This document shows, in pieces, positions 5,880 to 64,000 of a DNA stretch of 64,000 bases (position 1 is its first letter; each line of letters begins with the position of its first letter). A program made the position numbers and the translations under genes. This DNA comes from Dehalococcoidia bacterium (lineage in GTDB: Bacteria; Chloroflexota; Dehalococcoidia; Bin125). The notes below the pieces were generated by a model. The model made no database searches and was not told the origin of the DNA. It saw only the letters and a list, made by a program, of their open reading frames with translations. The stretch covers positions 544,001 through 608,000 of the forward strand of contig OY820591.1 in NCBI GenBank assembly GCA_963555985.3. Direction: 5' to 3'.

Positions 5880-5920
5880 GCAGAGAGCATAGACGACACA
5901 GAACGTGCGTACGCGAGAAT

Positions 5921-34820: not shown

Positions 34821-35050
34821 GGGACCCCCCCTCTGTCACTACATGACATCTCCCCCCGCAGTGGGGGGAGAGGGGAGCGGACTTCTGCAAAGGGATCCCT
34901 TTGAGGGGACGGGCTCCGCGGTGGGGGGAGAGGGGAGCGGATTTTCGCAACGGTCTCCGCAGGCGGGAATTCACATCCCACTCGATACGCGGCATGGATT
35001 CCCGCCTGCGCGGGAATGACGGATTTTGGGCAGATCTCTAGAGGGGGATC
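34821..35050. repeat. Composite palindromic repeat cluster
   Basis: GC hairpin, 60-bp-period duplication, TTTCGCAACGGTCTC and GGATTCCCGCCTGCGCGGGAATGACGG. Confidence 0.85.
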
Positions 35051-36939: not shown

Positions 36940-37131
36940 CCCCCCCTCTGTCACTCCGTGACATCTCCCTCCCCGCCTACGCGGGGACAGGCTCCGCAAG
37001 GGGGGAGAGGAGAGCTCCGCAAGGGGGGGAGGAGATTGCGGCTTTGGCAACGGTCTCGGTAGGCGGGAATGCGCATCCCGCTCGAGACGCCGCATGGATT
37101 CCCGCGTTCGCGGGAATGACGGAAATGGGGA
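36940..37131. repeat. Composite repeat, left flank of the HTH gene
   Basis: Shares GACATCTCCCTCCCCGCCTACGCGGGGACAGGCTCCGCAAGGGGG and ATGGATTCCCGCGTTCGCGGGAATGACGGAAA with 38012-38250, same orientation. Confidence 0.85.
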
Positions 37132-37908
37132 TTAGGCGGGGAGTTGTCGCTGGCGCTGGCGGCTGAGTTCAAGGTACTCGCGGATCCAGGGGTCAGGGCC
37201 GTCGACGGCCTGGATCAGGGGGTCTTGGGGGTCGTCGATGTAGCCGGGGTAGGGCGCTTGGGACGGGGGATTCTGGCCGGGTTGGTTCGATTCGCTGTTG
37301 TGGTTGGGGGATTGCTCGATTGCGTGTTCGGGCTTGTTCGGTTCTGTTCGGGCCGGTGCGTCGGCGTCTTGGGCGCGTTCGTCGTGTTCGGAGGCGTTCG
37401 GTTCCGTTCGGCTGGGTGCGGGTGCGAGGGCGAGCGGTTGGTCGGGGTCGAGGTCGGCGTTCGGTTCGGCGGGAGGTGCCTCGATCTGCTGGATTTCTTC
37501 GGGGGTGGGGGGGAAGAAGTGTTCGGGCCTGGGGTAGCGTTGGCCGTAGCGGTCGACGCTGACGCCGCCCTGGACGAGTTCTTGGGTGCGCTCGGATTCG
37601 TCGCGGCGGATTTTGGGCACGGCCGTGAGCAGCAGGCGCAGTTCGCGGATGTCGGCGCGGCGGCGGTCGTGGTGGGGGTCGTCGAGGTCGGCGAGTTGGA
37701 GCAGGTGGACGACGAGTTGGTCGGCGGCGAGTTCCTGGATCAAGTCGGCGCGGAAGAGTTCGAAGTCTTTGAGGTAGGCGGCGACGGTGGAGTGTGCGCA
37801 GCCCATCTCCTGGGCGATTTGGCGGAGGGTGAGGCCTTGTTGGCGGAGTTGGTGTGCTTGGAGCAGTTTGGCGCGTCGGGCGGGGTTGGGGAAGTTGGGG
37901 AAGCTCAT
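37132..37908 (-). CDS. HTH-domain protein with Pro/Glu-rich low-complexity tail
   Basis: 'LRQQGLTLRQIAQEMGCAHSTVAAYL' helix-turn-helix. Confidence 0.7.
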   Translation of the reverse strand: MSFPNFPNPARRAKLLQAHQLRQQGLTLRQIAQEMGCAHSTVAAYLKDFELFRADLIQELAADQLVVHLLQLADLDDPHHDRRRADIRELRLLLTAVPKIRRDESERTQELVQGGVSVDRYGQRYPRPEHFFPPTPEEIQQIEAPPAEPNADLDPDQPLALAPAPSRTEPNASEHDERAQDADAPARTEPNKPEHAIEQSPNHNSESNQPGQNPPSQAPYPGYIDDPQDPLIQAVDGPDPWIREYLELSRQRQRQLPA

Positions 37909-38011: not shown

Positions 38012-38250
38012 AGGACCCCCCTCTGTCCCCCCGCCTTCGCGGGGGCAGGCTCTACGGGACATCTCCCTCCCCGCCTACGCGGGGACAGGCTCCGCAAGGG
38101 GGGGAGAGGGGAGCACTTTTGCAACGATCTCCTCGAGTGGGAATTCGGGTCCCACTCGAGGCGCTGTATGGATTCCCGCGTTCGCGGGAATGACGGAAAC
38201 GGGAGTTTTGCAAAGGCCTCCTTTCGCGGGGACAGGCTCCGCGGCGGAGC
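38012..38250. repeat. Composite repeat, right flank of the HTH gene
   Basis: Direct-repeat counterpart of 36940-37131, continuing into TTTTGCAAAGGCCTC. Confidence 0.85.
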
Positions 38251-41132: not shown

Positions 41133-41687
41133 ATGTCTACTTACACGATTCAGGACCTCGTCCGCGACGCGCAGCGGATTGCCGACCGGGGCGACTCCGG
41201 CGAGCAGCAGATTGCGGCGATTGCGGGGCCGCTGGAGCGGGTGATTAGCCGGCCCGATTGCCTGCTTGATCTGCCCGATTGCGAGACGGCAGACCCGGAG
41301 AAGGGGTTTCTGATCCATCGCAGCGACAATCTGACGATCAATGCGGTGGTCTGGGCGCCGGACAGCGGGGCGCCGATCCATAACCACAACGGTTGGGCGA
41401 TGGAGGGTGTGATTTCGGGAGTGGAGCTGAACCGCAACTTCGACCGCACCGATGACGGTACTGTGCCCTGGTACGCGACGTTGGAGGAGCGCGATCCGAC
41501 GCGGGTCGAAGCCGGTGGGACGACGTACCTGCCGGAGCCGCCGTCCGACATTCATGCGGTCGAGATTCTGCACGGCAAGACGGTGGCGATTCACGTCTAC
41601 GGCCTCGACCTCTACCGGCAGTGGCGCTACCGCTTCGATCTGGAGACGGGCAAGGTCTCTCCATTTGGGATGCGCTCTCAGCGCTAA
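41133..41687 (+). CDS. Cysteine dioxygenase-like cupin
   Basis: 'APIHNH.GW', 'DIHAV', 'AIHVYG'. Confidence 0.8.
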   Translation: MSTYTIQDLVRDAQRIADRGDSGEQQIAAIAGPLERVISRPDCLLDLPDCETADPEKGFLIHRSDNLTINAVVWAPDSGAPIHNHNGWAMEGVISGVELNRNFDRTDDGTVPWYATLEERDPTRVEAGGTTYLPEPPSDIHAVEILHGKTVAIHVYGLDLYRQWRYRFDLETGKVSPFGMRSQR

Positions 41688-41719
41688 ACGACGATCGGTT
41701 ACAGCGAGAGGGATCGCTC

Positions 41720-42502
41720 ATGGGCAAGCTCGAGGGCAAGGTGGCGTTGATTTCCGGCGGCTCGCGGGGACAGGGCGAAGCTCAGGCGCGTCTGTTCGCT
41801 CGTGAAGGGGCCCAGGTGGCACTCGCAGACGTGCTCGACGCGGAGGGCGAACTGGTCGCCGCGAGCATCAACGACACCGGCGGGGAGGCGGTCTACCACC
41901 ACCTCGACGTGACCGAACAGAGCCAATGGAAGGCGACGGTTGAGGCCGTTGTGGAGCAGTACGGCCGGCTCGACATCCTGATCAACAACGCCGGCATCGC
42001 ACGGATCAAGTTGATCGAGGAATCGTCGCTCGAGGATTACCTCGAGGTGATCCGGATCAATCAGGTCGGCGTCTGGCTGGGCATCCAGGCCGCGATTCCC
42101 GCGCTCAGGGCAGCGGGCGGCGGTTGCATTATCAACACGTCGTCGATCGCCGGACTGCTGGGCAGCGCGGGACTGGGCGCGTATGTCTCCTCCAAGTTCG
42201 CCGTGCGCGGCCTGACCAAGGTCGCCGCGCAAGAGCTGGGCCAGTACAACATCCGCGTCAACTCCGTCCACCCAGGCCCGATCGATACGCCGATGATTCG
42301 CGATCCGCAGATCGCCACGCGCGAACCGGGCGACACCAGCTTCGAAGCTCCGATTCCGCGCGTGGGCACGACTGAGGAAGTCGCGGCGATGATGCTCTTC
42401 ATCGCGGCCGATGCCACCTACAGCACCGGCTCGGAGTTTGTGATTGATGGTGGGATGACAGCCGGGTGGTCAGTCACGCGCCAGCAGGATCGCGGCGAAT
42501 AG
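41720..42502 (+). CDS. SDR oxidoreductase (3-alpha,20-beta-HSD-like), copy A
   Basis: 'SGGSRGQG', NNAG, YVSSK, 'NSVHPG'. Confidence 0.93.
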   Translation: MGKLEGKVALISGGSRGQGEAQARLFAREGAQVALADVLDAEGELVAASINDTGGEAVYHHLDVTEQSQWKATVEAVVEQYGRLDILINNAGIARIKLIEESSLEDYLEVIRINQVGVWLGIQAAIPALRAAGGGCIINTSSIAGLLGSAGLGAYVSSKFAVRGLTKVAAQELGQYNIRVNSVHPGPIDTPMIRDPQIATREPGDTSFEAPIPRVGTTEEVAAMMLFIAADATYSTGSEFVIDGGMTAGWSVTRQQDRGE

Positions 42503-42520
42503 GTCGAAGGAGCGATTGAG

Positions 42521-43291
42521 ATGGGCAAACTCGACGGACAGGTGGCGCTGATCTCGGGCGCGGCGCGGGGCCAGGGCGAAGCGCAGGCGCGGCTGTTTGC
42601 GCGCGAGGGCGCGGCGGTGGTGCTCGGCGACGTGTTGGAGGCTGAGGGTCAGCAGGTGGCCGAGAGCATCATCGACACCGGCGGCCAGGCCACGTTCCGC
42701 AAGCTTGACGTGACCGTTGAATCCGACTGGGCCGGAATCGTTGAGCAGGCTGTCGACCAATTCGGAGGTCTCAACATCCAGATCAACAACGCCGGCATCC
42801 TCCGCGCCGGGATGATTGAGACATCCACGCTGGATGAGTACCTCGAAGTGATCGATATCAACCAGGTCGGCGTCTGGCTGGGCATCCGCGCCGCGATCGA
42901 GCCGATGCGCGCGGCTGGCGGCGGCTGCATCATCAACACCTCCTCGACCGCCGGATACGAGGGCTATCCCGGTCTGAGCGGCTACGTCTCCTCGAAGTTC
43001 GCCGTGCGCGGCATCACCAAGGTGGCCGCGCTCGAACTGGCTCAGTACAACATCCGCGTCAACTCGGTCCATCCCGGACCGATCGACACGCCGATGGTGC
43101 GCGATCCGCGCATCGGCGGCCGCAGCGAAGGCGAGATCCCGGTCGACAGTCCAATCGGACGCGCCGGCCGGCCCGATGAGGTGGCCAAGATGATGCTCTT
43201 CATCGCGGCCGACGCCACCTACAGCACCGGCGCGGAATTTCAGATCGACGGCGGCCAGATGTCGGGCCGGGGCATCCCGGTCAGCGACTAG
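42521..43291 (+). CDS. SDR oxidoreductase, copy B
   Basis: 'SGAARGQG', NNAG, YVSSK. Confidence 0.93.
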   Translation: MGKLDGQVALISGAARGQGEAQARLFAREGAAVVLGDVLEAEGQQVAESIIDTGGQATFRKLDVTVESDWAGIVEQAVDQFGGLNIQINNAGILRAGMIETSTLDEYLEVIDINQVGVWLGIRAAIEPMRAAGGGCIINTSSTAGYEGYPGLSGYVSSKFAVRGITKVAALELAQYNIRVNSVHPGPIDTPMVRDPRIGGRSEGEIPVDSPIGRAGRPDEVAKMMLFIAADATYSTGAEFQIDGGQMSGRGIPVSD

Positions 43292-43327
43292 TTTCCAGGA
43301 ATCACGGAATCCGACGGGAGGAACGAT

Positions 43328-44107
43328 ATGGGCAAGCTCGATGGACAGGTCGCGCTGATCTCCGGCGGGGCCAGAGGACAGGGAGAGGCGCAGGGCCGAC
43401 TCTTCGCCCGCGAGGGCGCAGCCGTCGCGCTCGGCGACGTGCTCGAAGAAGAAGGCCAGCGCGTCGCCGAGAGCATCAACGACAGCGGCGGCCAGGCCAT
43501 GTTCCAGAAGCTGGACGTGACCGAGGCCTCCAGTTGGCAGTCGATGATCGACGAGACCGTATCGCAGTTCGGCCGCTTGGACATTGTGATCAACAACGCC
43601 GGCATCGCCCGGATCAAGATGATCGAGGATTCCTCGTTGCAGGACTATCTCGAAGTGATCCTGGTCAACCAGCTCGGCGTCTGGCTGGGCATGAAGGCCG
43701 CGATTCCGGCGCTCAAAGAGGCCGGCGGCGGCTGCATCATCAACACCTCCTCGACCGCCGGGCTTGAGGGCTATAGCGGTCTGGGCGCCTACGTCTCGTC
43801 CAAGTTCGCCGTGCGCGGCATGACCAAAGTGGCGGCGCTGGAGCTCGCGCCCTACAACATCCGCGTCAACTCGGTCCATCCCGGCCCGATCGACACGCCG
43901 ATGGTCCGCGATCCGCAGATCCAACGGACGGACAATGTCGACCTTGACCTCGCTCGCTCTTCGCCGATCCCGCGGGTGGGCCACGTCGACGAAGTAGCCA
44001 AGATGATGCTCTTCATCGCGGCCGATGCGACCTACAGCACCGGTTCCGAGTTCGTGATCGACGGCGGCGTCACGGCCGGCTCGATGGTCGCGAGGCAAGA
44101 GGACTGA
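43328..44107 (+). CDS. SDR oxidoreductase, copy A'
   Basis: 'SGGARGQG', NNAG, YVSSK. Confidence 0.93.
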   Translation: MGKLDGQVALISGGARGQGEAQGRLFAREGAAVALGDVLEEEGQRVAESINDSGGQAMFQKLDVTEASSWQSMIDETVSQFGRLDIVINNAGIARIKMIEDSSLQDYLEVILVNQLGVWLGMKAAIPALKEAGGGCIINTSSTAGLEGYSGLGAYVSSKFAVRGMTKVAALELAPYNIRVNSVHPGPIDTPMVRDPQIQRTDNVDLDLARSSPIPRVGHVDEVAKMMLFIAADATYSTGSEFVIDGGVTAGSMVARQED

Positions 44108-44127
44108 AACGGCTGAGGAACAACGGC

Positions 44128-44154
44128 GAGATTCCCGCTTTCGCGGGAATGACG
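44128..44154. repeat. CGTC-type REP hairpin
   Basis: GAGATTCCCGCTTTCGCGGGAATGACG. Confidence 0.8.
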
Positions 44155-44173
44155 AGGTGATTGGAGCAACGAC

Positions 44174-44944
44174 ATGGGCAAGCTTGATGGACAGGTCGCG
44201 CTGATTTCCGGCGGCGCGCGCGGTCAAGGCGAACGGCAGGCGCGACTCTTCGCCCGCGAGGGGGCGGCGATCGCGATCGGCGATCTGCGGGAGGAAGACG
44301 GCAACCGCGTCGCCGAGAGCATCAACGACACCGGCGACCAGGCGATCTTCCGCAAGCTCGACGTCTCCGACCAGTCGAGTTGGGCGGAGATGGTCGAGGC
44401 CACGACCGAACAGTTCGGCAGGCTGAACATCCTGCTGAACAACGCCGCCATTCTGCGCAACGGATCGATCGAGGACACGTCGGTGCAGGAGTACCTGGAA
44501 ATGATCAAGATCAACCAGGTCGGGGTCTGGCTGGGCATCCGCGCGGCGATCAAGCCGATGCGCGAGGCCGGCGGCGGCTGCATCATCAACACCTCCTCGA
44601 CGGCCGGTCTGGAAGGCTACCCCGACTCCAGCGCCTACGTCGCCTCGAAGTTCGCCGTGCGCGGCCTGACCAAGGTCGCCGCGCTGGAGCTGGGGCCCTA
44701 CAACATTCGCGTCAACTCGGTGCATCCCGGCCCGATCGATACGCTGATGACCACGAATGAGGACACGCCTCGCCGGGCGGACGGGGAGGTGCCGGTTCGG
44801 ATGCCGATCCCGCGTTTCGGCCACGTCGACGAAGTGGCCAAGATGATGCTCTTCATCGCCGCCGACGCGACCTACAGCACCGGTTCCGAGTTTGTGCTCG
44901 ACGGCGGCCTGACCGCCGGCCGCTCCCTCGAGGTCGGCGAGTAG
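44174..44944 (+). CDS. SDR oxidoreductase, copy B'
   Basis: 'SGGARGQG', NNAA, YVASK. Confidence 0.93.
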   Translation: MGKLDGQVALISGGARGQGERQARLFAREGAAIAIGDLREEDGNRVAESINDTGDQAIFRKLDVSDQSSWAEMVEATTEQFGRLNILLNNAAILRNGSIEDTSVQEYLEMIKINQVGVWLGIRAAIKPMREAGGGCIINTSSTAGLEGYPDSSAYVASKFAVRGLTKVAALELGPYNIRVNSVHPGPIDTLMTTNEDTPRRADGEVPVRMPIPRFGHVDEVAKMMLFIAADATYSTGSEFVLDGGLTAGRSLEVGE

Positions 44945-44973
44945 CATTCCCTCCCCAACCAACGGCCGCGCGC

Positions 44974-45426
44974 TCAGTCGAGATAGCGCCGCAGCAGGGG
45001 CGTGAAGCCGGCTCTGGCGAACTCTTGGTCGGCGGTGAGGATGGTGGCGATGTTGTACTCGCGCATGATCACGATGGCGGCGCAGTCCTGGAGCGAGAAC
45101 GTGGAATCGGCGAACTCGCCGGTGTAGAGGTTGAGCGCCGCTTCGGAGAGTCGGCGGTCGTGCGGGAGGACTGTGTAGCGCGGGTCGGCGCGCAGCGACG
45201 CGATCCGTTGTCCGGCGTCGATCCGAACGGCGCGAGCCCTGCGAGTGAAATGGGCGAGCGTTTCCAGGATCACGCCCTCGCTGGTGACCAGCGGCTGCTG
45301 CGGCAAGATCTCGTTCGCTGCTGCGAGCGCGGCCGCGCGCCAGTTGTCGCGCAACGAATACAGGGCGATCAAGTGGACACTATCGACGAAGAGCGGTTCT
45401 CGATCGGGCAACGGGCGATCCGGCAT
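44974..45426 (-). CDS. PIN-domain (VapC-like) toxin, copy 2
   Basis: Acidic tetrad in 'FVDS', 'ILET', 'SLQDC', 'LTADQEF'; TGATG overlap with upstream gene. Confidence 0.85.
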   Translation of the reverse strand: MPDRPLPDREPLFVDSVHLIALYSLRDNWRAAALAAANEILPQQPLVTSEGVILETLAHFTRRARAVRIDAGQRIASLRADPRYTVLPHDRRLSEAALNLYTGEFADSTFSLQDCAAIVIMREYNIATILTADQEFARAGFTPLLRRYLD

Positions 45427-45644
45427 CAAGACTGACGCGGCACGCGAAACTGGTCCAGGTAAGCGGCCAACTCTTTCTGCGTCTCCTCCGACAGGTCCAG
45501 CGGCTCGTCGCCCCAGGTTTCGCTCAGTACCTGCTGCGTGGTGCGATGGTCGTCCTCCGGGATCGGCTTGATTGGGATGTACCAGCTCGGACGCTCGCGC
45601 GGTTCGTTGGCGTCGGTTCCGTTGGGGGTTGACTCGTCGGACAT
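45426..45644 (-). CDS. Putative antitoxin, copy 2
   Basis: Small acidic ORF coupled to the PIN gene; TAAAAT -10 and AGGAG SD upstream. Confidence 0.7.
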   Translation of the reverse strand: MSDESTPNGTDANEPRERPSWYIPIKPIPEDDHRTTQQVLSETWGDEPLDLSEETQKELAAYLDQFRVPRQS

Positions 45645-45706
45645 CTCGGACTCCTGGGTCGATTTTAGCGCCTTGCCCCAGTCTCTGCTCGGGGGCGGAG
45701 CGGTTG

Positions 45707-46159
45707 TCAATCGAGGTAGCGGCGGAGGAGGGGGGTGAAGCCGGCTCTGGCGAACTCTTGGTCGGCGGTGAGGATGCTGGTGATCCCGTACTCGCGCATG
45801 ATCACGATGGCGGCGCAGTCCTGGAGCGAGAACGTGGAATCGGCGAACTCGCCGGCGTAGAGGTCGAGGGCTGCTTCCATCAGGGCCGGTTGGTGGGGGA
45901 TGACACGGTATCCAGGATCCGCGCGTATTCCGCGAATTCGGCTGACCAGACGCTGCCGAAACGACCGAGGCGCGCGTGAGAAGTGGGCCAGCATCTCCAG
46001 CAGAACCCCGTCGCTGGTGTAGATCATCTGTTCATTATCGAGCTGCCTGGACGCGGCGATCGCTGCGCCCCGCCAATCGTCCTCTGCCGAAAACAGGGCA
46101 ATCAGATAGACGCTATCGACGAAGAGCGGCTCTCGACTTGGCAACGGGCGACCCAGCAT
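45707..46159 (-). CDS. PIN-domain (VapC-like) toxin, copy 1
   Basis: Paralogue of 44974-45426 with near-identical C-terminal third. Confidence 0.85.
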   Translation of the reverse strand: MLGRPLPSREPLFVDSVYLIALFSAEDDWRGAAIAASRQLDNEQMIYTSDGVLLEMLAHFSRAPRSFRQRLVSRIRGIRADPGYRVIPHQPALMEAALDLYAGEFADSTFSLQDCAAIVIMREYGITSILTADQEFARAGFTPLLRRYLD

Positions 46160-46389
46160 CAAGAATCGCGCGGGACCAGAAACTGGTCGAGGAATACCTT
46201 GGTCTCCGCTGCCACTTCCGGAGACAATTCCGGCGGCTCATCACCGAACAGATCTCCGAACGTGCCCTCCAGGACTTCCGCGGCTGTGCGGTGGTCATCC
46301 TCGGGACGCGGCTCGAACTCGATGTACCAGCTCGGACGCTCGCGCGGTTCGTTGGCGTCGGTTCCGTTGGGGGTTGGGTCTTGCGGCAT
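46159..46389 (-). CDS. Putative antitoxin, copy 1
   Basis: Paralogue of 45426-45644; TAGAAT -10 and AGGAG SD. Confidence 0.7.
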   Translation of the reverse strand: MPQDPTPNGTDANEPRERPSWYIEFEPRPEDDHRTAAEVLEGTFGDLFGDEPPELSPEVAAETKVFLDQFLVPRDS

Positions 46390-46512
46390 GGCGGTCTCCT
46401 GCGTCGATTCTAGCGCCGCTGCCCGGCCCTGGATTGGGGCGGGCTGTTCGGACTTGGGCGTGTTTGGCTGGGGATTTGTTGGTGGGGGTGGGAGATGGTT
46501 CGGGCGGGGGCG

Positions 46513-46881
46513 CTAGGGCTTGGCCTGAATGAGCACTTGCCCGCCTTCCTCAATGTCAATGTTCAAGTTGTGGTTGTGCAGCAGGGACATGCCCAGCAGG
46601 GGCGTCGTATCTGAGACGTAGGCAACGATCTCTCTTGGCTGGCCGTCCCAGAGCACCGTGACGCCGTAGACGTCGACTGTCGCTTCGCTGCCGTCTGCCA
46701 GGATGACTCGGTTGACGCCCCGGTAGCTCAATCCCAACTCTGCGACGATGGCCGGTCGCAGGGTGAGGAAGCGGGTGAACCCGGTGTCGACCACGGCGTC
46801 CACGTTGCGGGCTTGTCCGGCCGGACCTCGGAGGGGAAGGGCGACCACCGCCTCGTAGGCTGCGTTCACCGTTCCCTGCAT
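46513..46881 (-). CDS. Clan AA aspartic protease (AF_0612-like)
   Basis: 'DAVVDTGF', 'LADGS', 'PLLGMSLL'. Confidence 0.85.
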   Translation of the reverse strand: MQGTVNAAYEAVVALPLRGPAGQARNVDAVVDTGFTRFLTLRPAIVAELGLSYRGVNRVILADGSEATVDVYGVTVLWDGQPREIVAYVSDTTPLLGMSLLHNHNLNIDIEEGGQVLIQAKP

Positions 46882-47180
46882 CACTCGGCCCTGGGCAGCG
46901 CGCCGCCGCCGATGCTGGCGACCGCGCGGTAGCCCACGCGAAGCAGCCAGATGTCGATGGCATCGGGCCGGGCCTTGCGCAGACGGTCCGATGCAGCCAG
47001 TTCGCTTTCGGCGACGGCCCAGTGGCGGCTGTCCACGTCGATGGCGACGTACTGGCCGTCGTGCCTGGCCTCCACCAACGCTTTGATCTCCCGACGGTAG
47101 ATCTGATCGCCGAGGCGGGCGGTTTCTTGGTTGGGTCGGCGTTCGCGTTGTTCGCGGGTTGGGCCGTTGGGGGTGGACAC
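46881..47180 (-). CDS. DUF5678-like small protein
   Basis: 'GDQIY..EI...VE..HDGQYVAIDVDS', 'LLRVG'; GTG start at end of the linker repeat; TGATG overlap with the protease. Confidence 0.7.
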   Translation of the reverse strand: MSTPNGPTREQRERRPNQETARLGDQIYRREIKALVEARHDGQYVAIDVDSRHWAVAESELAASDRLRKARPDAIDIWLLRVGYRAVASIGGGALPRAE

Positions 47181-47263
47181 GATGCGGCCTCGCTTCCTGA
47201 GGCCAGTGTAGGCAATCCCCGGTTCCGGCTTCACGCCGGAACCCGCGCGGCGGCGGGCGGCGG
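47178..47263 (-). repeat. Conserved linker (hairpin, TACACT -10, SD-like, GTG), copy 2
   Basis: Near-identical to 48193-48279. Confidence 0.9.
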
Positions 47264-47445
47264 CTACTTGGGCACGGCGGTGATCTTGAGCTTCAGGGAG
47301 CGGCCCTGCGCGATCGGATTCCAGCTGTTCCCGGAGTAGTTCACCGAGTTCGCGATGCTCCAGCCGTTGCCGGACGGCTTGCCGATGGCGGCCTTGCTGG
47401 AGGCTGCCCTGATTGGACACGCTGGCGGTGAGGTTGCGCGGGTAG
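47264..47445 (-). pseudogene. Orphan 3' fragment of a surface-protein gene, variant 2
   Basis: Reads PSGNGWSIANSVNYSGNSWNPIAQGRSLKLKITAVPK*, homologous to the end of 49441-53766; no start; an out-of-frame 'LTASVSNQ' piece upstream suggests an internal deletion. Confidence 0.85.
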
Positions 47446-47446
47446 C

Positions 47447-47896
47447 TCAACGTCGGCCGGCGAGCGTGGCGACTGCGACCATGGCGCGTTCTTGCGGCGG
47501 CGCCGCGTTGAAGTCGATGATCGCCCCTTCGGCCCGGTCGATCCACGCCAGGACCTGAGTGAGCGCAAAGTTCGCGTCAGGGTTGTAGTCGGCGTTCTCA
47601 CGCGCCTTCTTGATACTTCCAATGATGAAGGCGAAATGTTGCACCTGTGGGCTGAACAGATGAGGCCACCCGTGCAGCGGGTTCTCGGCGCGGTAATGGC
47701 GCAGCGAGCGGTAGGTCGCCGTCCAGTCGGATTGATTGGCCAGCGTTCGGGGCCCCACGATCAGGTTGGCGTTGCTGGCCGCCAGCGCGTGGAACATGGC
47801 GTAGTAGGCCGTGCTGACCGCGCGCCGCAAGGCTTCCTGGGAAGGTTGACCGTTGGCGAGCTGACGGCTCGCGCGGATCAGTTCTACCCAATCCAC
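47447..47896 (-). CDS. HEPN-domain protein
   Basis: 'RRAVSTAYYAMFH' and 'RENADY' motifs. Confidence 0.8.
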   Translation of the reverse strand: MDWVELIRASRQLANGQPSQEALRRAVSTAYYAMFHALAASNANLIVGPRTLANQSDWTATYRSLRHYRAENPLHGWPHLFSPQVQHFAFIIGSIKKARENADYNPDANFALTQVLAWIDRAEGAIIDFNAAPPQERAMVAVATLAGRR

Positions 47897-48195
47897 GGCG
47901 CGCCCAACTGGTCGGCGTCGCTCTCGGAGACGTAGGAGATGGACGGGAGCGCGTGGATGCCGGCCTCACGCAACGCCCGGTGCAAGTAGGCGTCATAGGA
48001 GTTCAGCCGGGGGATGTCGAGGATGCTCGGATCGCCCTCGTAGATCACCCAGACATCGACGAACGGGACGCCGTCGAAGTCTTCGTCGGGCTTGGTCCAG
48101 ACCTGGCGCCAGGGCAACTTGCCCTGGTGGTGGTCGTCCAAGGTGCCGAGGATGATCTCCCTGGCCTGTTCCGCCTGCTCTGCGGTGATCATCAC
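47884..48195 (-). CDS. Small protein upstream of HEPN, possibly degenerate MNT-like partner
   Basis: Overlaps the HEPN start; acidic 'DEDFDG..FVDVWV' strand; GTG start at end of the linker repeat. Confidence 0.55.
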   Translation of the reverse strand: MMITAEQAEQAREIILGTLDDHHQGKLPWRQVWTKPDEDFDGVPFVDVWVIYEGDPSILDIPRLNSYDAYLHRALREAGIHALPSISYVSESDADQLGAPWIG

Positions 48196-48279
48196 GATGC
48201 GGCCTCGCTTCCCGAGGCCAGTGTAGGCAATCCCCAGTTCCGGCTTCACGCCGGAACCCGCGCGGCGACGGGCGGGCGC
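48193..48279 (-). repeat. Conserved linker, copy 1
   Basis: Near-identical to 47178-47263. Confidence 0.9.
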
Positions 48280-48447
48280 CTACTTTTGCGTGGCGGTGAC
48301 CTTGAGCTTCATGGCGGCGTTGCTGGGATCCAGCGCCTATGAGCCTTGCTGGTAGCGCGTGCCGTTGGCGAGGCTCCAGCCGTTGCCGCTCGGCGTCAGA
48401 GTCTCGTTGTTACTCGCTGCGCCCGGCAGGTAGACGGCGTTGCCGCT
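48280..48447 (-). pseudogene. Orphan 3' fragment of a surface-protein gene, variant 1
   Basis: Reads ETLTPSGNGWSLANGTRYQQGS*ALDPSNAAMKLKVTATQK*; in-frame TAG (48337-48339) where the other copies have Trp. Confidence 0.85.
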
Positions 48448-48697
48448 ACTGCAACACGCCTGCCGGCGAGATGGTTGTGAGCGTGTTGCCCTCGGGTATC
48501 GTGATCGTAGACAGGGGACTTGGCTCCGGCGCCCGCTGCCCGTTCGCCTCCATGCTGGCAATCCAGTCGCGCATGGCGTCTTCCGCATTGCGCACGACCT
48601 CATCCAGGGTGTCGCCCATGGCGACGCAGCCCGGCAAATCCGGGAAGACCGCCCCGTACGCGCCCGTCTCGCCGTCGATCAGCACTGGATACTTCAC
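48446..48697 (-). CDS. hicB: HicB-family antitoxin (short, possibly 3'-truncated)
   Basis: 'YGAVFPDLPGCVAMGDTLDE...NAEDA'; own GGAGG SD and GTG. Confidence 0.8.
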   Translation of the reverse strand: MKYPVLIDGETGAYGAVFPDLPGCVAMGDTLDEVVRNAEDAMRDWIASMEANGQRAPEPSPLSTITIPEGNTLTTISPAGVLQ

Positions 48698-48698
48698 G

Positions 48699-48871
48699 CT
48701 AGTCCTCCCATCCGGCGGCGGCGGCGATACTGCGGGCGACTGCGGGCGACACAGTGCGATGCTATCGCGCAGATTCGGGTGTCGGTAGATGTCGTGATTG
48801 CCGCCCCGACGCTCCAGATACCAGCCTTCCCGCAGCAACCGACGTCGGATCCTGCGGGTTTGCAGTTCCAT
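48699..48871 (-). pseudogene. hicA: Frameshifted HicA-family toxin
   Basis: 'LLREGWYLERRGGNHDIYRHP' start; native-looking end 'VARSIAAAAGWED*' in another frame; 10-bp tandem duplication at 48731-48750. Confidence 0.75.
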
Positions 48872-48897
48872 GATGTCAATCTACCGCCTCGGGCCAG

Positions 48898-48941
48898 TGT
48901 CTGAATCGGGATTGTTGGGATTGTGGGATTTTCAGGATGGG
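48898..48941. repeat. 44-bp GGGATT-unit direct repeat, copy 1
   Basis: TGTCTGAATCGGGATTGTTGGGATTGTGGGATTTTCAGGATGGG; 3 mismatches to 49391-49434. Confidence 0.85.
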
Positions 48942-48948
48942 CGGGCGG

Positions 48949-49332
48949 CTAGCTGAAGAGTTGCGCGAGCTGGGCGGCGACGATGAAGGCGATGGCGGCG
49001 CGGGTCAACCAGCGCTCGGTGTTGCTGCGCTGGTTGGCTTCGTCGAACTTGGCCAGCATCAGCTTCTCCAGATCGGCGAAGCGTTGATCCATCTGCCGCT
49101 GGATGTCGCTGAAGCGGATTTCCATTTCGCGCTGCAACTGATCGCGCAGGTCGGCGAGGCCGTCTTTGAGTTCCTGCTTGGTCGCCGTCTGCGAGAGCAC
49201 GCGGGTCAGGCCGAGCTCGAAGGCGAGGCGGTAGGCCTTTGCCTGCGGCTCTTCCATGCCCGCTTCGGCCAGATCCTCTTCGAGGCGCTCGGACCAGATG
49301 TCCAGCGTTGGGTCGGCCTGCTGCGTGGTCAT
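48949..49332 (-). CDS. DUF1640/CCDC90-like coiled-coil protein
   Basis: 'LAEAGMEEPQAKA' head, 'ATKQEL' neck, coiled coil, hydrophobic C-terminus. Confidence 0.75.
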   Translation of the reverse strand: MTTQQADPTLDIWSERLEEDLAEAGMEEPQAKAYRLAFELGLTRVLSQTATKQELKDGLADLRDQLQREMEIRFSDIQRQMDQRFADLEKLMLAKFDEANQRSNTERWLTRAAIAFIVAAQLAQLFS

Positions 49333-49390
49333 GCTCGGCTTCCTTGAGGCTCAGGATAGGCGCTCCCTCCCGCCCCGGATGGGGATGGGA

Positions 49391-49434
49391 TGTCTGAATC
49401 GGGATTGTCGGGATTGCGGGATTTTCGGGATGGG
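49391..49434. repeat. 44-bp GGGATT-unit direct repeat, copy 2
   Basis: See 48898-48941. Confidence 0.85.
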
Positions 49435-49440
49435 GGCCGG

Positions 49441-52400
49441 CTACTTGGGCACGGCGGTGACGCGGATTTTCAGGGAGCGGCCCTGCGTATTCTCACCCCA
49501 ATTTAGTGAGGAGGCGCGCATCGCGTCCGCGATGCTCCAGCCGTTGGCGGACGGCTGCAACGTCTGCCCGTTGTCCAAGGTGGTGTTCACCTTGGCTTGC
49601 GTAGTGTTGCCGGTCCCCCCGAGGTGGACGAAGTACTGCTTGCCCGCCTCGAGCGCGCAACCGGCGCCTGAGCAGGTGAAGGTGGAATCGCCGACCGCGG
49701 GGGTCCCGGACAGGGTCGCGAGCGCCGTCGTGGTGTCGGGTTTGCCGTTGGACAGCCGGCTGCGGAGGTAGACGGTGATGCTGCCGGCGCTGTGCATCTC
49801 GGCGAAGTTCAGCGTCACACTGGAGAGGGTGTAGCCGCCGCTGTTGCTCCCGGTCGTGAACTCCTGCGCCCACTGGGCGGTGCCTGCGACGATATGAGTC
49901 AGGGTTGTGGTCTGGCTCAGGTTGGAGACGGTGACGGCGGCGGTGAACGTCTCGCTGGCGACCTCGTTCGCGCTGTTGCAGCCGGTCGCGCTGTACGCCT
50001 TGTAGGTGTAGGTCGTGCCGGCGGTCAGCCCGGTCAAGTCCTCTGTGGCGTCGTTGGCCGCGACCGGGCCCTGGCAGGTGTTGTCCGGCCCGGTGTTCGC
50101 GTCGTACCACCACTGCGCGGTGTGTCCGGCGATGGTGAGCGTGGCGGTGATCGTCGTGATCCCGCTCGCGGTGAGCGATGCGGTCGTGGTGAACGCTGGG
50201 GCGGCGGCGAGTTCGTTCGCGCTGGTGCAGGTCGAATCGCTGTAGGCCTTGTAGGTGTAGGTCGTGACGACGGTGAGGCCGCTGAGCGCCTGGCTGGTCG
50301 TGTGGACCGGGCCCTGGCAGGAGGTGTCGGGGGCGGTGTCGGCCTGGTAGTACCAGGCGCCGGCGTGATTGGCGATGGTCAGCGTCGCGGTGGTGCCGGC
50401 GACGTCGCTCGCGGAGAGGGTGGGCGCCGGTGGATCCGGCATATCGGTCGACCAGAGCATGTCGGAGGGTTCGGACCAGGCGCCGTAGCCGATGAAGTTG
50501 TCGTGGGCGCGGACGCGGACCTGGTAGGGCACGCCGCCGCGAATGTCGCCGCTCCAGCTGGCGCGGTTGGTGGTCTCGCCGATCAGCGTGGGCGAGGAGG
50601 TGACCACGGCCTGACCGCCGCGCTTGCCGTCCATGCCGATGATCGGGGCTTCCCACGACGTCCAGGCGGGCTGCCAGGGCTCGCCGATGGCGGTGCGCCA
50701 GATGCACTGCCACTTGCCGTCGACCGCCTGGGGCGGGGTGACCTGGCAGGGGCGCCACTGGATCTGGTACCAGTTGGGGGCGCCGCTGGGCGTGGTCCAG
50801 GAGACTTCGATGTCGTTGTTTTTGGGGGCGCCGGTGGGCTTGGTCGGCGCGCCGACGCAGAGGGGCAGGGTGACGTCGTTGCCGGAGGCGTCGTGCTGGG
50901 GGTTGATGTCGGAGAGGTACTTGGACCAGCCCGCGGGTATACAGCCGCTGAGCCGGTTCTCGCCCAGTGCGAAGTTGGCGGAGGTCAAGGAGGTCAGGCC
51001 GCCGAGCTGGTTCGGGATCTGCCCGCTGAAGCGGTTGTTATTCAGCCAGAGGCGTGTCAAGTTGGTCAGCTTGGCCAGGCTCGCCGGCAGGGGACCGGAG
51101 AGTTGGCTGTTGTCCAGGGCTAGCTCGGTCAACTCGGTGAGGTTGCCGATGTTGGCCGGGAGCTGTCCGGTCAGTTCGCGGTTGTACAACCGGAGCGTCG
51201 TGAGACCGGTGAGGTTGGCGAGTCCGCGCGGCATCGGGCCGGGGCGACTGGCCAAGACGCCGGATTCGACAACGAGCTTTGTCAACGCATCCAGATCGGC
51301 GACGGTGTTGGGCACGTTCCCGGTGCTGGAATACCAATAGAACGTTACGTTCAGTTCCGTCACCCGGCTGTTTTCGACTTTCACACCCGTCCACGAACTC
51401 ATCGCCGTATCGGTCTTCCAGTTGTCGAGCACGGAATCGCTGACCTTGATGATGTCCTTGGCGGCGAGCAGGGTGTCGCAGTCTTCCACGATGGGGCCTG
51501 AGGTCACGGTGCTGCCGCCCACGGCGGTGGTGCCGGCGCAGACGTCGTCGTCGCCTTCGGTGGCGTCCAGCACGGTGGAGACGTTGTTGAAGTTGGCGTC
51601 CGTACTGGTCGCGGTGTGGGTGACCGTGGTCGCGCCGTAGGCGTAGTCGCCGTCGCCCTTGCCCGCGCCGGGCACCGTGTCGGTGTCCTGCGCGGCTGTG
51701 AGCGTGACGGTCTGCGGGACCGACCAGTTGGAGGGGGTGAAGGTCAGCGTGGTCGGGTTGGCGGTGATGTCGCTGTCGCCCGTCGTGGTGATGGTCACGG
51801 TGACGTTGGCGGTGGGCTGATGGCTGAGCCAAACGGTATGGGTCTCCGAGCTGCCTTCGGGAATGATGTGCCAGGGCGTGGAGAGCGCGACCGACGAGGT
51901 GGTGAACTCCGCGTCGGTGGCGTCGGAGGTCACTTCGGTGTTGCAGGCGGCGTTCGAATAGGCCTTGAACGTGTACGAGGTCCCGGGCTCGAGCCGCGTG
52001 AGGCTCGCTGTGTTTCCCGGCCAGTACACGAGGGTGCAATCACCGGAACTGGGCGCGGTCTGTTTGTAGTACCAGTTGCTGGAGTGGCCCGTGATGGTGA
52101 GCGTGGCTCCGTAGTAGGCGACGTTGGATGCGGTCAGCGTGCCTGATCCCGCGGCGGTGACCAGTTGGCCCGAGGCGATCGCCGCGCCGCTGCAGCCGCC
52201 GCCGTAGACGGTGATCGTGTAGGTGGTGTCGGCGTCGAGGCCGCCCACGGTCGTCTGCTGGCCGTTGACCGGGCCGACGCAGCCGGACTGTCCGGAGGCG
52301 CCGCTGGCTCCGGCTGCGCCGGCCGCTCCGGGCGGCTCGTCGGCGCGGTAGTACCAGGTTCCGTCGTAGTTGCCCAGGGTGAGGTCGGCGCCGTCGGCGG

Positions 52401-53766
52401 TCTCGTTCTCGACGGTCAGCGTGGGCGCGGCTTCGGGCGTCGCGGCGACGTACCAGGGCGCGGCGGCGGGCGCGGGGCGGCTATTGCCGACGCTGTTGAC
52501 GGCGCGAATCTTGAAGCGGTATTCGATGCCGTTGTCCAGGCCTTCGACGCGGAAGGAGGTGGTGGTCGCGCCGCTGGTCGGCATCGCCGTCCAGTCGCTC
52601 CAGGCGACGCCGGTGTAGCGGATGCGGTACTCGTAGCGGCTGATCGAGGAGTCGGCCGGGTCGTCCCAGGTGAGGATCACGCGCTGGTCGCCGGGTCTCG
52701 CGCTCAGCCCGGTCGGTCGCGCGGGCGCGGTGGGCTCGTCGTTGTCGATCTCGGTGGCGGTCCAGTCGACCTTGCCGCCGTACCAGTCGCGGGCGTCGTG
52801 GGTGACGTCGCGGGCGCCGTTGGCGTAGTCGTCGTCCTCGGCGGCGATCAGGGTGACGGTCTGGGCGGTGTTCCAGTTGGCGGGGGTGAAGGTGAGCTTG
52901 AGCGCCGCGGCGTCGCTGGGTTCGCCCTTGAAGCTGATGTCGGGGTCGTTGTTGTCGCGTACGGAGAGTCCGATGCAGACTTCGACGTCTTCGTCGGGCT
53001 GGACGGTGAGCTTGACCTGGTAGCTGGTCTCGCCGCCTTCGGGGACGGAGAGGGCGGTGATCGGGTTGCCGTTGCCGTCCTGGACGATGATGCCGCGCGG
53101 AGCGGGCGGCGTGTAGGGTCCGCTCGCGGGGGAGTTGCGCCAGTTGGCGCCGCCGCCCGCGTTCTTGGCGCGGACGCCGACGATGTAAGTCTTGGCGTTG
53201 TCGGCGCTGATGGTGATGCTGGTCGCGGTGAGGTCGAAGGCGGCCAACTGCCAGCTCTGGGCGTTGTCGTCGGTGTAGGTGACGTGGTACGAGGTCGCGC
53301 CCGCCGGAGCGTCCCAGGAGGCGGTGAGGGTTCCGTCGGCGCGGGTCAGGCTGACGGCCGCGACCGCGCTCGGCGGCGGAGGCGGGGTGTAGGGTCCGGC
53401 GGCGGCGGAGTTGCGCCAACCGCTGCCGCCGTGCTCGTTCTTGGCGCGGACGCCGACCACGTAGGTCTTGGCGTTGTCGACGTCGATCCTGATGTTGGTT
53501 TCGGCGTGGTCGAGGGCGGCCAGTTGCCAGCTCTGTTTGCCGTTGTCGGAGTAGGTGACGTGGTAGGAGGTCGCGCCCGGCACGGCGTCCCAGGAGGCGG
53601 TTAATTTTCCGTCGGCGCGGGCGATGCTGACCGAGTTGGGCGTCGCGGGGGGCGAGGTGAGATCACCGCCGCTCTCGGCCAGGGCGCCGGCGATCGCGGC
53701 CAGCGCCGCCAGCAGCGCGATTGCCGCCAAGGTCCAGGTTCGAGAAGCTGAACGCAGGAATGTCAT
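49441..53766 (-). CDS. Large secreted multidomain surface protein (Fn3 repeats, Cys-paired ~80-aa repeats, LRR block, C-terminal choice-of-anchor-R-like domain)
   Basis: Signal peptide; duplicated 'LTASWDA..GATSYHVTY'; 'LTFTP.NW...QTVTL' x2; LRR 'LSGPLPASLAKLTNLTRLWLNNNRFSGQIP'; 'VSNL...AQEFTTGSNSGGYTLSSVTL'. Confidence 0.88.
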   Translation of the reverse strand: MTFLRSASRTWTLAAIALLAALAAIAGALAESGGDLTSPPATPNSVSIARADGKLTASWDAVPGATSYHVTYSDNGKQSWQLAALDHAETNIRIDVDNAKTYVVGVRAKNEHGGSGWRNSAAAGPYTPPPPPSAVAAVSLTRADGTLTASWDAPAGATSYHVTYTDDNAQSWQLAAFDLTATSITISADNAKTYIVGVRAKNAGGGANWRNSPASGPYTPPAPRGIIVQDGNGNPITALSVPEGGETSYQVKLTVQPDEDVEVCIGLSVRDNNDPDISFKGEPSDAAALKLTFTPANWNTAQTVTLIAAEDDDYANGARDVTHDARDWYGGKVDWTATEIDNDEPTAPARPTGLSARPGDQRVILTWDDPADSSISRYEYRIRYTGVAWSDWTAMPTSGATTTSFRVEGLDNGIEYRFKIRAVNSVGNSRPAPAAAPWYVAATPEAAPTLTVENETADGADLTLGNYDGTWYYRADEPPGAAGAAGASGASGQSGCVGPVNGQQTTVGGLDADTTYTITVYGGGCSGAAIASGQLVTAAGSGTLTASNVAYYGATLTITGHSSNWYYKQTAPSSGDCTLVYWPGNTASLTRLEPGTSYTFKAYSNAACNTEVTSDATDAEFTTSSVALSTPWHIIPEGSSETHTVWLSHQPTANVTVTITTTGDSDITANPTTLTFTPSNWSVPQTVTLTAAQDTDTVPGAGKGDGDYAYGATTVTHTATSTDANFNNVSTVLDATEGDDDVCAGTTAVGGSTVTSGPIVEDCDTLLAAKDIIKVSDSVLDNWKTDTAMSSWTGVKVENSRVTELNVTFYWYSSTGNVPNTVADLDALTKLVVESGVLASRPGPMPRGLANLTGLTTLRLYNRELTGQLPANIGNLTELTELALDNSQLSGPLPASLAKLTNLTRLWLNNNRFSGQIPNQLGGLTSLTSANFALGENRLSGCIPAGWSKYLSDINPQHDASGNDVTLPLCVGAPTKPTGAPKNNDIEVSWTTPSGAPNWYQIQWRPCQVTPPQAVDGKWQCIWRTAIGEPWQPAWTSWEAPIIGMDGKRGGQAVVTSSPTLIGETTNRASWSGDIRGGVPYQVRVRAHDNFIGYGAWSEPSDMLWSTDMPDPPAPTLSASDVAGTTATLTIANHAGAWYYQADTAPDTSCQGPVHTTSQALSGLTVVTTYTYKAYSDSTCTSANELAAAPAFTTTASLTASGITTITATLTIAGHTAQWWYDANTGPDNTCQGPVAANDATEDLTGLTAGTTYTYKAYSATGCNSANEVASETFTAAVTVSNLSQTTTLTHIVAGTAQWAQEFTTGSNSGGYTLSSVTLNFAEMHSAGSITVYLRSRLSNGKPDTTTALATLSGTPAVGDSTFTCSGAGCALEAGKQYFVHLGGTGNTTQAKVNTTLDNGQTLQPSANGWSIADAMRASSLNWGENTQGRSLKIRVTAVPK

Positions 53767-53898
53767 GATGATTTCCTCGCAGTCACGTAATCAGGCTAAC
53801 AGAGATACGATAGGGCTATATATGGGGGAATGGGTGGCGGTTGTTCATGTTTTGGTTACTTTTGTGGGTAGGTGTTCACTTTGAGGTCGGTGTCGTTC

Positions 53899-54245
53899 GC
53901 GGGCGGGAATGCGGATGCTGCTCGATCCGCCGCGTGGGTTCCCGCGTTCGGAGGGCTTTGCAAATTGGCATTCCCGCTGCTCTCGTCATTCCAGCGAAAG
54001 CTGGAATCTCGCCCGACCAGATAGACCGAACTCCGAACGAGATTCCAGGTCAAGCCTGGAATGACGGAAATGGGGATTTTGCGCGGGTCTCCTCAAGGGG
54101 GAGCTGCCACGAAGTGACTGAGGGGGTGAAACGTGGTGCAGCGGATAGCGCTGCGGTGTTCTCACCCCCTCTGCCTGCGGCATCTCCCCCTCAAGGGGGA
54201 GATCGATCATGGTGTACGCGCGGGTCTCCTCAAGGGGGAGTGGAG
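53899..54245. repeat. Composite palindromic repeat cluster
   Basis: Paired CGTCATTCCAG...CTGGAATGACGG; CTCCCCCTCAAGGGGGAG hairpin; GCGCGGGTCTCCTCAAGGGGGAG twice. Confidence 0.85.
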
Positions 54246-63642: not shown

Positions 63643-64000
63643 TCAGCGCTGAGCTTCCAGCGACACCATCGACCGGCCGCTGCCTTTGACCAGGCGGCCG
63701 GACCAAGTGGTTGGCGGGGCGTCCGACGCCTCCAGCCATTCCGCTCGTGTCACTCGAAATCCGGCGGCGTCCATTGGGGGCTTGAGGGACTTGCGCAGCG
63801 TCTGCGGCGACGGCGCGTCGAATTCGTCGGGCGCTGCTTCGGCGTTGAGCACGATGCTCACCCGCGACTGCTCCGCACACAACCCATCAAGCAAGTCTGC
63901 CAATGCTGCGTCACCGTTCAGAACCATCCGCAGCAGGGCGGCCCAGGGAAAATAGATCGTCAGCCAATCCGCCGCCCCGCGCAGCTCTTGCGGCAATGCC
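63643..64000 (-). CDS. 16S rRNA (adenine-1408-N1)-methyltransferase-like protein, NpmA/KamB family (5' end outside window)
   Basis: 'LPQEL...AD.LTIYFPW..LL', 'AGF.V' and 'TTW..RL..G..R' motifs in NpmA order. Confidence 0.7.
   Translation of the reverse strand, partial: ALPQELRGAADWLTIYFPWAALLRMVLNGDAALADLLDGLCAEQSRVSIVLNAEAAPDEFDAPSPQTLRKSLKPPMDAAGFRVTRAEWLEASDAPPTTWSGRLVKGSGRSMVSLEAQR

Follow-up and report, generated by a model that had tools for sequence, protein, structure and literature searches.

How can one and the same non-coding sequence stand directly in front of genes that have nothing to do with each other? The question is raised by a locus of a Dehalococcoidia bacterium (Chloroflexota; GenBank assembly GCA_963555985.3, contig OY820591.1) that lies within a stretch of 64,000 nucleotides (positions 544,001 to 608,000 of the forward strand), referred to here as the window and numbered from its first letter. 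Two linkers of about 86 bp, copy 1 (47178-47263) and copy 2 (48193-48279), end at the start codons of two unrelated genes on the minus strand, which carries all genes of the locus. An earlier note on this DNA had read the linker as a portable promoter and ribosome-binding platform into which open reading frames (ORFs) are exchanged precisely at the start codon, with a logic like that of an integron. Our analysis places the linker in a longer repeat, consisting of the tail of a surface-protein gene and the whole spacer behind it, and suggests, at a confidence that we would call about even, that this duplicated tail and spacer were left by a duplicative insertion and that the inserted genes took over the spacer as their expression signal.

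The linker is the spacer of a repeated gene tail

The two linkers are as alike as the earlier note had claimed, since a repeat search (family D14) aligned 47178-47260 with 48193-48275 on the minus strand at 96% identity, with 3 differences in 83 nt. Read on that strand both copies show the order that the note had given, from the stop codon of an orphan surface-protein fragment, or tip (TAG at 47264-47266 before copy 1 and at 48280-48282 before copy 2), through a GC-rich run, the hairpin GTTCCGGC-GTGAA-GCCGGAAC, TACACT and GGAAGCGAGG to ATC GTG. In copy 1 the GTG (47178-47180) starts the downstream gene for a protein of 99 amino acids (aa), and in copy 2 the GTG (48193-48195) is directly followed by the ATG of a 102-aa gene. 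The likeness ends at the GTG, after which copy 1 reads TCC ACC CCC and copy 2 ATG ATC ACC, and the proteins encoded downstream are unrelated, with an E-value of 0.13 between the two first genes and no alignment between the two second genes in BLASTP. As the linker is open in frame with both genes we considered it as an N-terminal coding extension, and rejected this because the homologues of both genes begin at the GTG or ATG (the 102-aa homologues start with MITAEQ and the closest homologue of the 99-aa protein with MSTPEG). The linker is therefore non-coding, and the claim that similarity stops at the GTG before non-homologous genes stands.

A degenerate third copy had been proposed in front of the gene that follows the intact surface-protein gene. 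It corresponds to the 3′ half of the linker (49334-49367, minus strand) and lies 1 nt upstream of the ATG (49330-49332) of a 127-aa gene; its local alignment score is 27, compared with 15.6 ± 2.3 in dinucleotide shuffles, none of which (0/2000) scored as high. We also confirm that the linkers are better conserved than the tips beside them, at 96% as against 68% (repeat families D13 and D15), with just 2 differences between the copies in a core of 70 nt. The extent given for the repeat needs correction, however: the linker is real, but in a self-BLAST the repeat reaches further upstream (47178-47298 and 48193-48314, 91% identity over 122 nt), and weaker homology continues through the whole tip.

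The source family of the tips is the C-terminal domain of the intact 1441-aa surface protein encoded at 49441-53766 (minus strand; Pfam fn3 and LRR), whose last 160 aa form a choice-of-anchor-R domain (NCBIfam NF041539, 75.2 bits against a cut-off of 30). Tip 2 (48283-48445, minus strand; tblastn, profile, and a DNA alignment running from 48410 to 48280) carries an in-frame TAG and begins 1 nt after the stop codon of a HicB gene. Tip 1 (47264-47446, minus strand; tblastn E 8e-5, profile) is closest to the intact gene's own end, with 47379 to 47264 aligned to 49556 to 49441 over 116 nt. On a profile of 144 positions built from 22 copies of the domain in the family, tip 2 covers positions 100-143 and tip 1 positions 107-143, and their envelopes start right behind the stop codons of HicB and of a 149-aa gene, respectively. 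Since the 122-nt repeat and both tips cover the same domain end, the repeat unit consists of the last ~45 codons of the surface-protein gene, the stop codon and all of the spacer that separates it from the following start codon. The linker itself looks like a complete, ordinary intergenic region between a surface-protein stop and the GTG of the gene pair at 46513-47180, a DUF5678-type gene and an aspartic protease gene.

Within the tips the most conserved DNA is GGCAACGGCTGGAGC (the NGW motif), found at the head of each, and the middle segment is unalignable, tip 1 being nearer to the end of the intact gene than to tip 2. Downstream of the expressed surface gene itself, the half of the linker with the hairpin is missing. 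Conversion from a paralogue at position 1507255 of the genome was considered as a source of tip 2 and rejected, as no close tract was found.

A second, shorter direct repeat of 54 nt lies upstream of these units on the same strand. Its copy A (49391-49443), an AATCC-rich half element, starts at the TAG of the surface-protein gene, copy B (48898-48951) starts at the TAG of the 127-aa gene, and the two are 90.7% identical in a self-BLAST. The full form of this AATCC-rich element is an 84-nt palindromic element that follows the surface-protein paralogue at G000:C1:1507159-1507251 (G000 denotes the bacterium's own assembly). By BLAST it occurs only behind choice-of-anchor-R genes and the 127-aa gene, the half copies being 49391-49443 and 48898-48951; the full element and one half copy were found by direct BLAST and the second half copy was reached via the 54-nt repeat.

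Further copies, recombinases and expression signals

If the linker were a platform that travels, it should be met elsewhere, and we searched for further copies. The 3.33-Mb assembly itself holds two full linker copies, all other matches being at most 27 nt long. There was no full match in 60 relatives (the best other match covered 37 nt, E 5e-4), 400 genomes of the phylum yielded no linker and just two GC-rich pieces of 29-37 nt, and plasmid and phage collections gave no linker match. When the 3,051-nt locus was compared with 64 other genomes of the family, matches fell only in the DUF5678/protease, 127-aa and HicB ORFs. In metagenome contigs of JGI a degenerate pattern covering all three copies found 8 matches, about the number expected by chance and none alike beyond the pattern; a large species-level genome collection lay outside this pattern scan, which limits the result that there are no further copies.

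We also compared the linker with the repetitive extragenic palindromic (REP)-like family of this genome, to which it looks alike by eye, and rejected it as a diverged member on a profile E-value of 1.1. That family, with a hairpin TTCCCGC...GCGGGAA and a conserved 20-mer (25 exact copies), occupies 179 places genome-wide, including 20343-20394, 34997-35039, 37097-37141, 38171-38222 and 54042-54093 in the window, often in tandem and often just upstream of gene starts. For the linker there are two copies only, and no REP-associated tyrosine transposase (RAYT, PF01797) or reverse transcriptase was found in the genome, so that it does not have the make-up of a REP or of a REPIN.

The earlier note had seen no integrase or attC site, and we agree. 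The best match to the integron integrase model TIGR02249 scored 77 bits against a cut-off of 265 in an assembly that is 96% complete; the matches below the cut-off are the genome's two tyrosine recombinases (C1:962692 and C1:1448131), both far from the window. The genome's one serine recombinase lies ~460 kb from the locus, and a co-occurring recombinase, for which the note had proposed to look, was not found, the 62 window ORFs scanned by Pfam including neither a recombinase nor a transposase. The attC sites of integrons are imperfect palindromes of 57-141 nt with RYYYAAC and GTTRRRY cores. The stem formed by GTTCCGGC and GCCGGAAC does not match this core consensus, and no attC-like fold was found, whole units folded as single-stranded DNA giving z-scores of -0.52 and -0.43. 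The only hairpins predicted for the linkers are a perfect stem of 8-9 bp with a 5-nt loop and a further stem of 6-7 bp, the second of which would sequester a GAGG motif; in folding energy copy 1 does not stand out (z -0.28) and copy 2 does so modestly (z -2.43). Rfam 15 gave no match at E ≤ 1 on either strand of 44000-54000.

Because no further copies turned up anywhere we searched, because neither an integrase, an attC site nor a recombinase accompanies the linker, and because the repeat is tied to a copied gene tail, portability and exchange of ORFs are unsupported, and the portable platform in this sense is not borne out by the genome, the relatives, the genomes of the phylum, the plasmids and phages or the metagenome contigs that were searched. 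What survives of the earlier interpretation is that one intergenic sequence stands, in two copies, directly at the start codons of unrelated genes and that it may plausibly supply their expression signals. The latter is plausible because the linker offers GAGG 7 nt upstream of the GTG and TACACT as a putative -10 element of the TANNNT type; high-GC bacteria use this looser -10 form, and TACACT fits only that form. The GC hairpin in front of it lacks a T tract.

The islet, its cargo and parallel inserts

The repeats lie in an islet of 9.2 kb (about 44950-54200, from the surface-protein gene to a pair of PIN modules) between glyoxalase and short-chain dehydrogenase/reductase (SDR) genes. Six relatives were examined; in four of them the second glyoxalase gene adjoins the last SDR gene directly and in convergent orientation, and neither the surface-protein gene nor the small modules are present at that place in any of the 6 regions; the block is thus an islet specific to this genome among those compared. 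No target duplication was found at its borders. Among the flanking genes, a luciferase-like monooxygenase is 93-96% identical in most genomes of the family. Four convergent SDR genes adjoin the PIN modules; these are tandem paralogues (41621-44944) with 73-81% DNA identity per ~800-nt unit, and at the same place relatives have one to five (one in G007, five in G339).

Downstream of the surface-protein gene the islet reads as an alternation of small genes and repeats. The 127-aa gene (48949-49332, minus strand) is an ORF of unknown function that is multi-copy in relatives, with seven DNA matches in G340 and three in a row in G336, sometimes in tandem. A second copy in the genome itself (G000:C1:702708-702989) lies 8 nt behind TATACT, which is consistent with a leaderless or very short-leader start. 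In the islet the 127-aa gene is followed by a decayed HicA fragment that is fused in one frame to HicB (48446-48871, minus strand; Pfam HicB_lk_antitox E 4.8e-15, and HicA_toxin E 3.5e-5, below the cut-off and confined to profile positions 2-32 of 58). A 10-nt tandem duplication (48729-48748) within the HicA frame accompanies the loss of the C-terminal half of HicA and the fusion to HicB.

Between tip 2 with linker copy 2 and tip 1 with linker copy 1 lies a pair of genes that we call cargo 2, a 102-aa gene (47884-48192, minus strand; no family match, 37 homologues) and, overlapping it by 13 nt, a 149-aa gene (47447-47896, minus strand; no family match). The 102-aa gene occurs in none of 300 other genomes of the class and at 22 loci in metagenome-assembled genomes (MAGs) of Chloroflexota, 21 of which also have the 149-aa partner; on this distribution the pair is foreign to the class. 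At the 22 loci the pair has its own conserved upstream region, which is unlike the linker and is absent here, so that the foreign part of the module extends from the ATG to the TGA, with a further 10 nt before tip 1. The C-terminus of the 149-aa protein is native up to its stop. A shared end sequence of HicB and the 149-aa gene, CTCGCCGGC, was considered and set aside as a chance match, because this stretch is native to the 149-aa family.

Behind linker copy 1 stands cargo 1, which comprises the 99-aa DUF5678-type protein (46881-47180, minus strand; 138 homologues, one with PF18929) and its partner, a 123-aa aspartic protease of clan AA (retropepsin-like; 46513-46884, minus strand) with 59.4 bits to TIGR03698 (cut-off 57.35) and E 1.6e-4 to Pfam Asp_protease_2. 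Relatives of the DUF5678 gene show GCTATCCTG 30-45 nt upstream of the start. The linker was also considered as the native upstream region of DUF5678 genes; in pairwise local alignments between the two, eight of nine loci did not score above shuffles and the ninth shared the GC-rich run only. The far end of the islet is made up of two tandem modules of VapBC type (44974-46417, minus strand; Pfam PIN, a 733-nt repeat) that are 81.6% identical to the module after the surface-protein paralogue at G000:C1:1507134. Two loci of the genome outside the islet join a surface-protein gene end to a VapBC-type module akin to those of the window.

The joins of the locus have independent support. The window lies on a contig of 3.15 Mb, in an assembly with 7.5% contamination, and unitigs from four runs, three belonging to one study and the fourth to a second, span the joins of cargo 1 to linker, of cargo 2 to linker, and of linker to tip 2 and HicB with 0 differences. 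Short unitigs break within the linker, and the pairing of each tip with its cargo is for that reason not confirmed by them. The 15 of 109 joints that were listed include no recombinant of the two linkers, metagenome joints at 85% likeness being unreliable. At this likeness, in a single metagenome run, one contig passes from the body of the intact gene (ending at 49561) through 8 other nucleotides into tip 1 (starting at 47366).

Is the bracketing of a small insert by copies of a neighbouring gene end peculiar to this locus? We compared the genome with itself for direct repeats of 45-400 nt with at least 85% identity that lie 200-4000 nt apart, which listed 43 local pairs. Of the 19 checked, 11 belong to dispersed families (3-148 copies) and eight have two copies; two of these eight are the present locus, two are tandem paralogues, one is unclear and three bracket small inserts. 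At G000:C1:622200-623700 the 62-nt 3′ end of a thioesterase gene, reaching as far as the TAG, stands on both sides of a DUF6364-type antitoxin and PIN pair, which is inserted right after the thioesterase TAG and leaves an orphan 62-nt copy behind it; in 7 of 10 relatives the site is uninterrupted, the thioesterase gene being directly followed by the gene that here comes after the orphan copy. At G000:C1:636100-638000 a D12-class DNA methyltransferase gene lies between copies of the 122 nt with which a neighbouring gene begins (ATG onwards), the upstream copy being an orphan N-terminal fragment that abuts a PIN gene. At G000:C1:863700-865600, 84-nt copies (95% identical) of a stretch near the 3′ end of an S-adenosylmethionine (SAM)-dependent methyltransferase gene bracket a 1-kb insert on the opposite strand. 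This insert, at 863987, has two ORFs, one of 109 aa and one whose matches to aspartic proteases stay below threshold; BLASTP showed no relation of the latter to cargo 1, and it was dropped as a relative.

The same architecture is found in one relative of another genus, G012. In its region G012:C1:404000-416000, at positions 5320-6600, a 157-nt repeat (87% identity) made of a tip end and the sequence downstream brackets a BrnT/BrnA pair on the opposite strand and is nested in a perfect 32-nt repeat, the whole forming a mosaic of surface-protein 3′ fragments. This repeat cannot act as a promoter for BrnT/BrnA because the pair is on the opposite strand. The mosaic also contains a 66-nt duplicated gene end. 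Orphan tips are rare in the family: a protein search of 65 genomes found them in short frames only in the present genome, in G012 and once at a contig end.

Lastly, the window ends in an ORF (63643-63996) with a match to the C-terminal half of the NpmA-type 16S rRNA (adenine-1408) methyltransferase family (PF24675, 67 bits, cut-off 60).

Possible origins of the repeat and their bearing

In the reading that we favour, an earlier and since decayed round would have placed the 127-aa gene and HicAB upstream, and later the foreign two-gene module would have inserted just at the start codon of the resident DUF5678/aspartic-protease pair. At this insertion the last ~45 codons of the surface-protein gene and the spacer would have been copied, which would leave the direct repeat on both sides of the newcomer. 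Having lost its own upstream region, the newcomer would probably be expressed from the copied spacer in front of it, a case of promoter reuse. The route was probably host recombination that needs no dedicated recombinase, either one-sided homologous recombination combined with illegitimate joining or the entry, by a single crossover, of a circle with a stretch of homology. Recombination normally removes direct repeats, and this one probably persists because a deletion between its copies would remove addictive or selfish genes.

Several points weigh against this. A consensus scan of the linker found no sigma-70-type consensus promoter. The divergence along the unit is uneven, with 2 differences in the 70-nt core as opposed to unalignable tip middles, which misfits a single duplication in situ followed by neutral decay, and therefore conversion, a crossover in the linker, or tips of different origin would be needed in addition. 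The boundaries fall on codons or within 10 nt of them (the GTG/ATG, 1 nt after the HicB stop, 10 nt after the 149-aa stop, and the TAGs at which both 54-nt copies start), and unguided recombination does not predict junctions at start and stop codons. Since there are only two to three copies the history is under-determined, and the parallel rests on three loci and one relative.

An unlikely alternative is serial replacement of the 3′ end, in which each block of tip, linker and cargo is a former end of the locus that was pushed downstream by an incoming surface-protein allele with its own downstream genes, through homology within the gene, as in orphan arrays behind polymorphic toxin genes, the linker being the native spacer of these alleles. 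It would account for tip 1 being close to the intact gene and tip 2 not, neither being close to the paralogue at 1507255, for the conservation of GGCAACGGCTGGAGC at the head of each tip, and for the three loci of the genome that pair a surface-protein gene end with a VapBC-type module; the metagenome contig that joins the intact-gene body to tip 1, at its 85% likeness, hints at alleles of the tip-1 type. However, it needs the same 96%-identical 83-nt spacer behind diverged alleles and before unrelated genes, which only shifts the puzzle, the searches made brought up the linker in no other genome and no metagenome contig, and the tips contain neither a toxin nor another variable effector domain. 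We are more doubtful still of a broader proposal, in which small selfish modules (toxin-antitoxin pairs, an orphan methyltransferase) would spread as recombinase-independent cassettes in a lineage almost without transposases and integrases. Here each module would carry a copy of the end of a host gene and its spacer as an 'attachment site' for host homologous recombination, the orphan tail would be the trace of entry and addiction would keep the module in place, with some rule setting the junctions at start or stop codons; the linker would be both crossover zone and the point of expression hand-over, and as a crossover zone it would be near-identical for that reason. The earlier note's own reading, a fixed promoter and ribosome-binding leader of mobile ORF cassettes exchanged at the start codon, now seems improbable. 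The reduction of cargo 2 to ATG...TGA without native flanks and the several cargo ends 0-10 nt from stop codons speak for it, and so do motif matches: GATT-N3-5-[AT]ACACTGG occurs three times in the genome (once in each linker, the third time in the leader that precedes the PIN/antitoxin pair inserted at 623238), and the leaders of HicAB and of the PIN insert match a linker segment at 15/22 (equalled in 24/500 shuffles) and 14/22 positions (39/500). These motif matches are individually non-significant, however, with ~0.7 chance occurrences estimated from base composition, and the cargo in G012 and at G000:C1:863987 is on the strand opposite to the repeat, in addition to the absence of further copies where we searched and of an integrase, an attC-like structure or a recombinase in the window.

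Very little probability remains for three further explanations. The tips could be silent donor cassettes that vary the C-terminus of the surface protein by gene conversion, as pilS does, with the linker as the downstream homology arm; a conserved motif at the tip head, conserved sequence behind it and differences mainly in the middle segment speak for it, but the frame of tip 2 is broken by a stop codon, tip 1 can be extended upstream only with a frameshift, the region downstream of the expressed gene has no hairpin half of the linker, and there are two donors only, so we regard this as very improbable. Equally hard to credit is a linker under selection as a cis-acting RNA, a shared 5′ leader or regulatory hairpins, through which two toxin-antitoxin-like operons would be controlled together. 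Both copies are predicted to form two hairpins, the second sequestering GAGG, and the 70-nt core differs at 2 positions, but 10 kb around the locus had no Rfam match at E ≤ 1, the fold z-scores of -0.28 and -2.43 are no better than stated above, the third copy lacks the second hairpin, and no compensatory changes are seen, as only 3 differences exist. Least probable of all is an assembly artefact in which unrelated pieces were joined through the repeat: the 7.5% contamination and the short unitigs that break in the linker would allow it, but the contig is 3.15 Mb long and unitigs from two studies cover the joins with 0 differences.

Several known systems resemble parts of this locus. In integron arrays near-flankless ORFs, typically including toxin-antitoxin cargo, alternate with a repeated element and are expressed from outside the cassette. 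The present locus shares with chromosomal arrays the promoterless ORFs with minimal flanks between repeats (cargo 2 from ATG to TGA plus 10 nt, and tip 2 starting 1 nt behind the HicB stop), but it has no IntI and no attC palindrome, comprises two to three units, and its repeat contains a fragment of a protein gene. Foreign DNA can also enter beside a region of homology without a dedicated recombinase, by homology-facilitated illegitimate recombination ('additive integration') in naturally transformable bacteria or by Campbell-type integration, and an insert that came in by a single crossover is flanked on either side by the homologous stretch as a direct repeat; the difference here is that the junctions lie at start and stop codons. 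In orphan tail arrays, such as those that integrative elements leave at tRNA genes or at the 3′ ends of genes and the orphan CT/immunity modules behind cdiA and rhs, displaced 3′ fragments alternate with inserted genes. The locus is like these in that tips and small genes take turns behind an intact gene, and differs in having no integrase or element body, in inserts of 0.7-1 kb, and in tips that are the end of an anchor-type domain and not toxin domains. As the tips are the last ~45 residues of choice-of-anchor-R and are followed by HicAB, a pair without family and DUF5678/protease, the locus is not an orphan toxin/immunity array of the cdiA-CT/cdiI or rhs kind, in which a variable C-terminal toxin domain precedes an immunity gene.

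The closest precedent is the putative mobile promoter, a highly similar non-coding sequence before unrelated coding sequences of one genome. More than 4000 families are described, mostly pairs, with ~92% mean identity, defined by at least 80% identity over at least 50 nt upstream of non-paralogous coding sequences, and the authors left open whether recent duplication or selection causes the similarity (Nijveen, Matus-Garcia & van Passel 2012, PMC3575422). With 96% over 83 nt and 91% over 122 nt, of which ~72 nt fall in the survey window of -150 to -50, the linker pair qualifies as a 'putative mobile promoter' pair by this operational definition. A similar leader before unrelated genes is common to both, whereas here the copy reaches the start codon, is joined to a copied gene tail, and has its two members 1 kb apart in one islet and not dispersed. 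A narrow search of titles and abstracts on toxin-antitoxin cassettes inserted between direct repeats returned none with this architecture.

Taken by itself the feature is modest, a two-copy reuse of a promoter region in a strain-specific islet. Its value comes from the context, in which several small inserts are bracketed by 54-270 nt copies of neighbouring gene ends in a genome with few mobile-element enzymes, and the interest is moderate and lies mainly in the recurrence of this architecture around other small selfish inserts. Should the pattern prove wider, it would be relevant to the way in which toxin-antitoxin modules and other selfish genes pass from chromosome to chromosome without recombinases of their own, and to how foreign operons gain the expression signals of their host.

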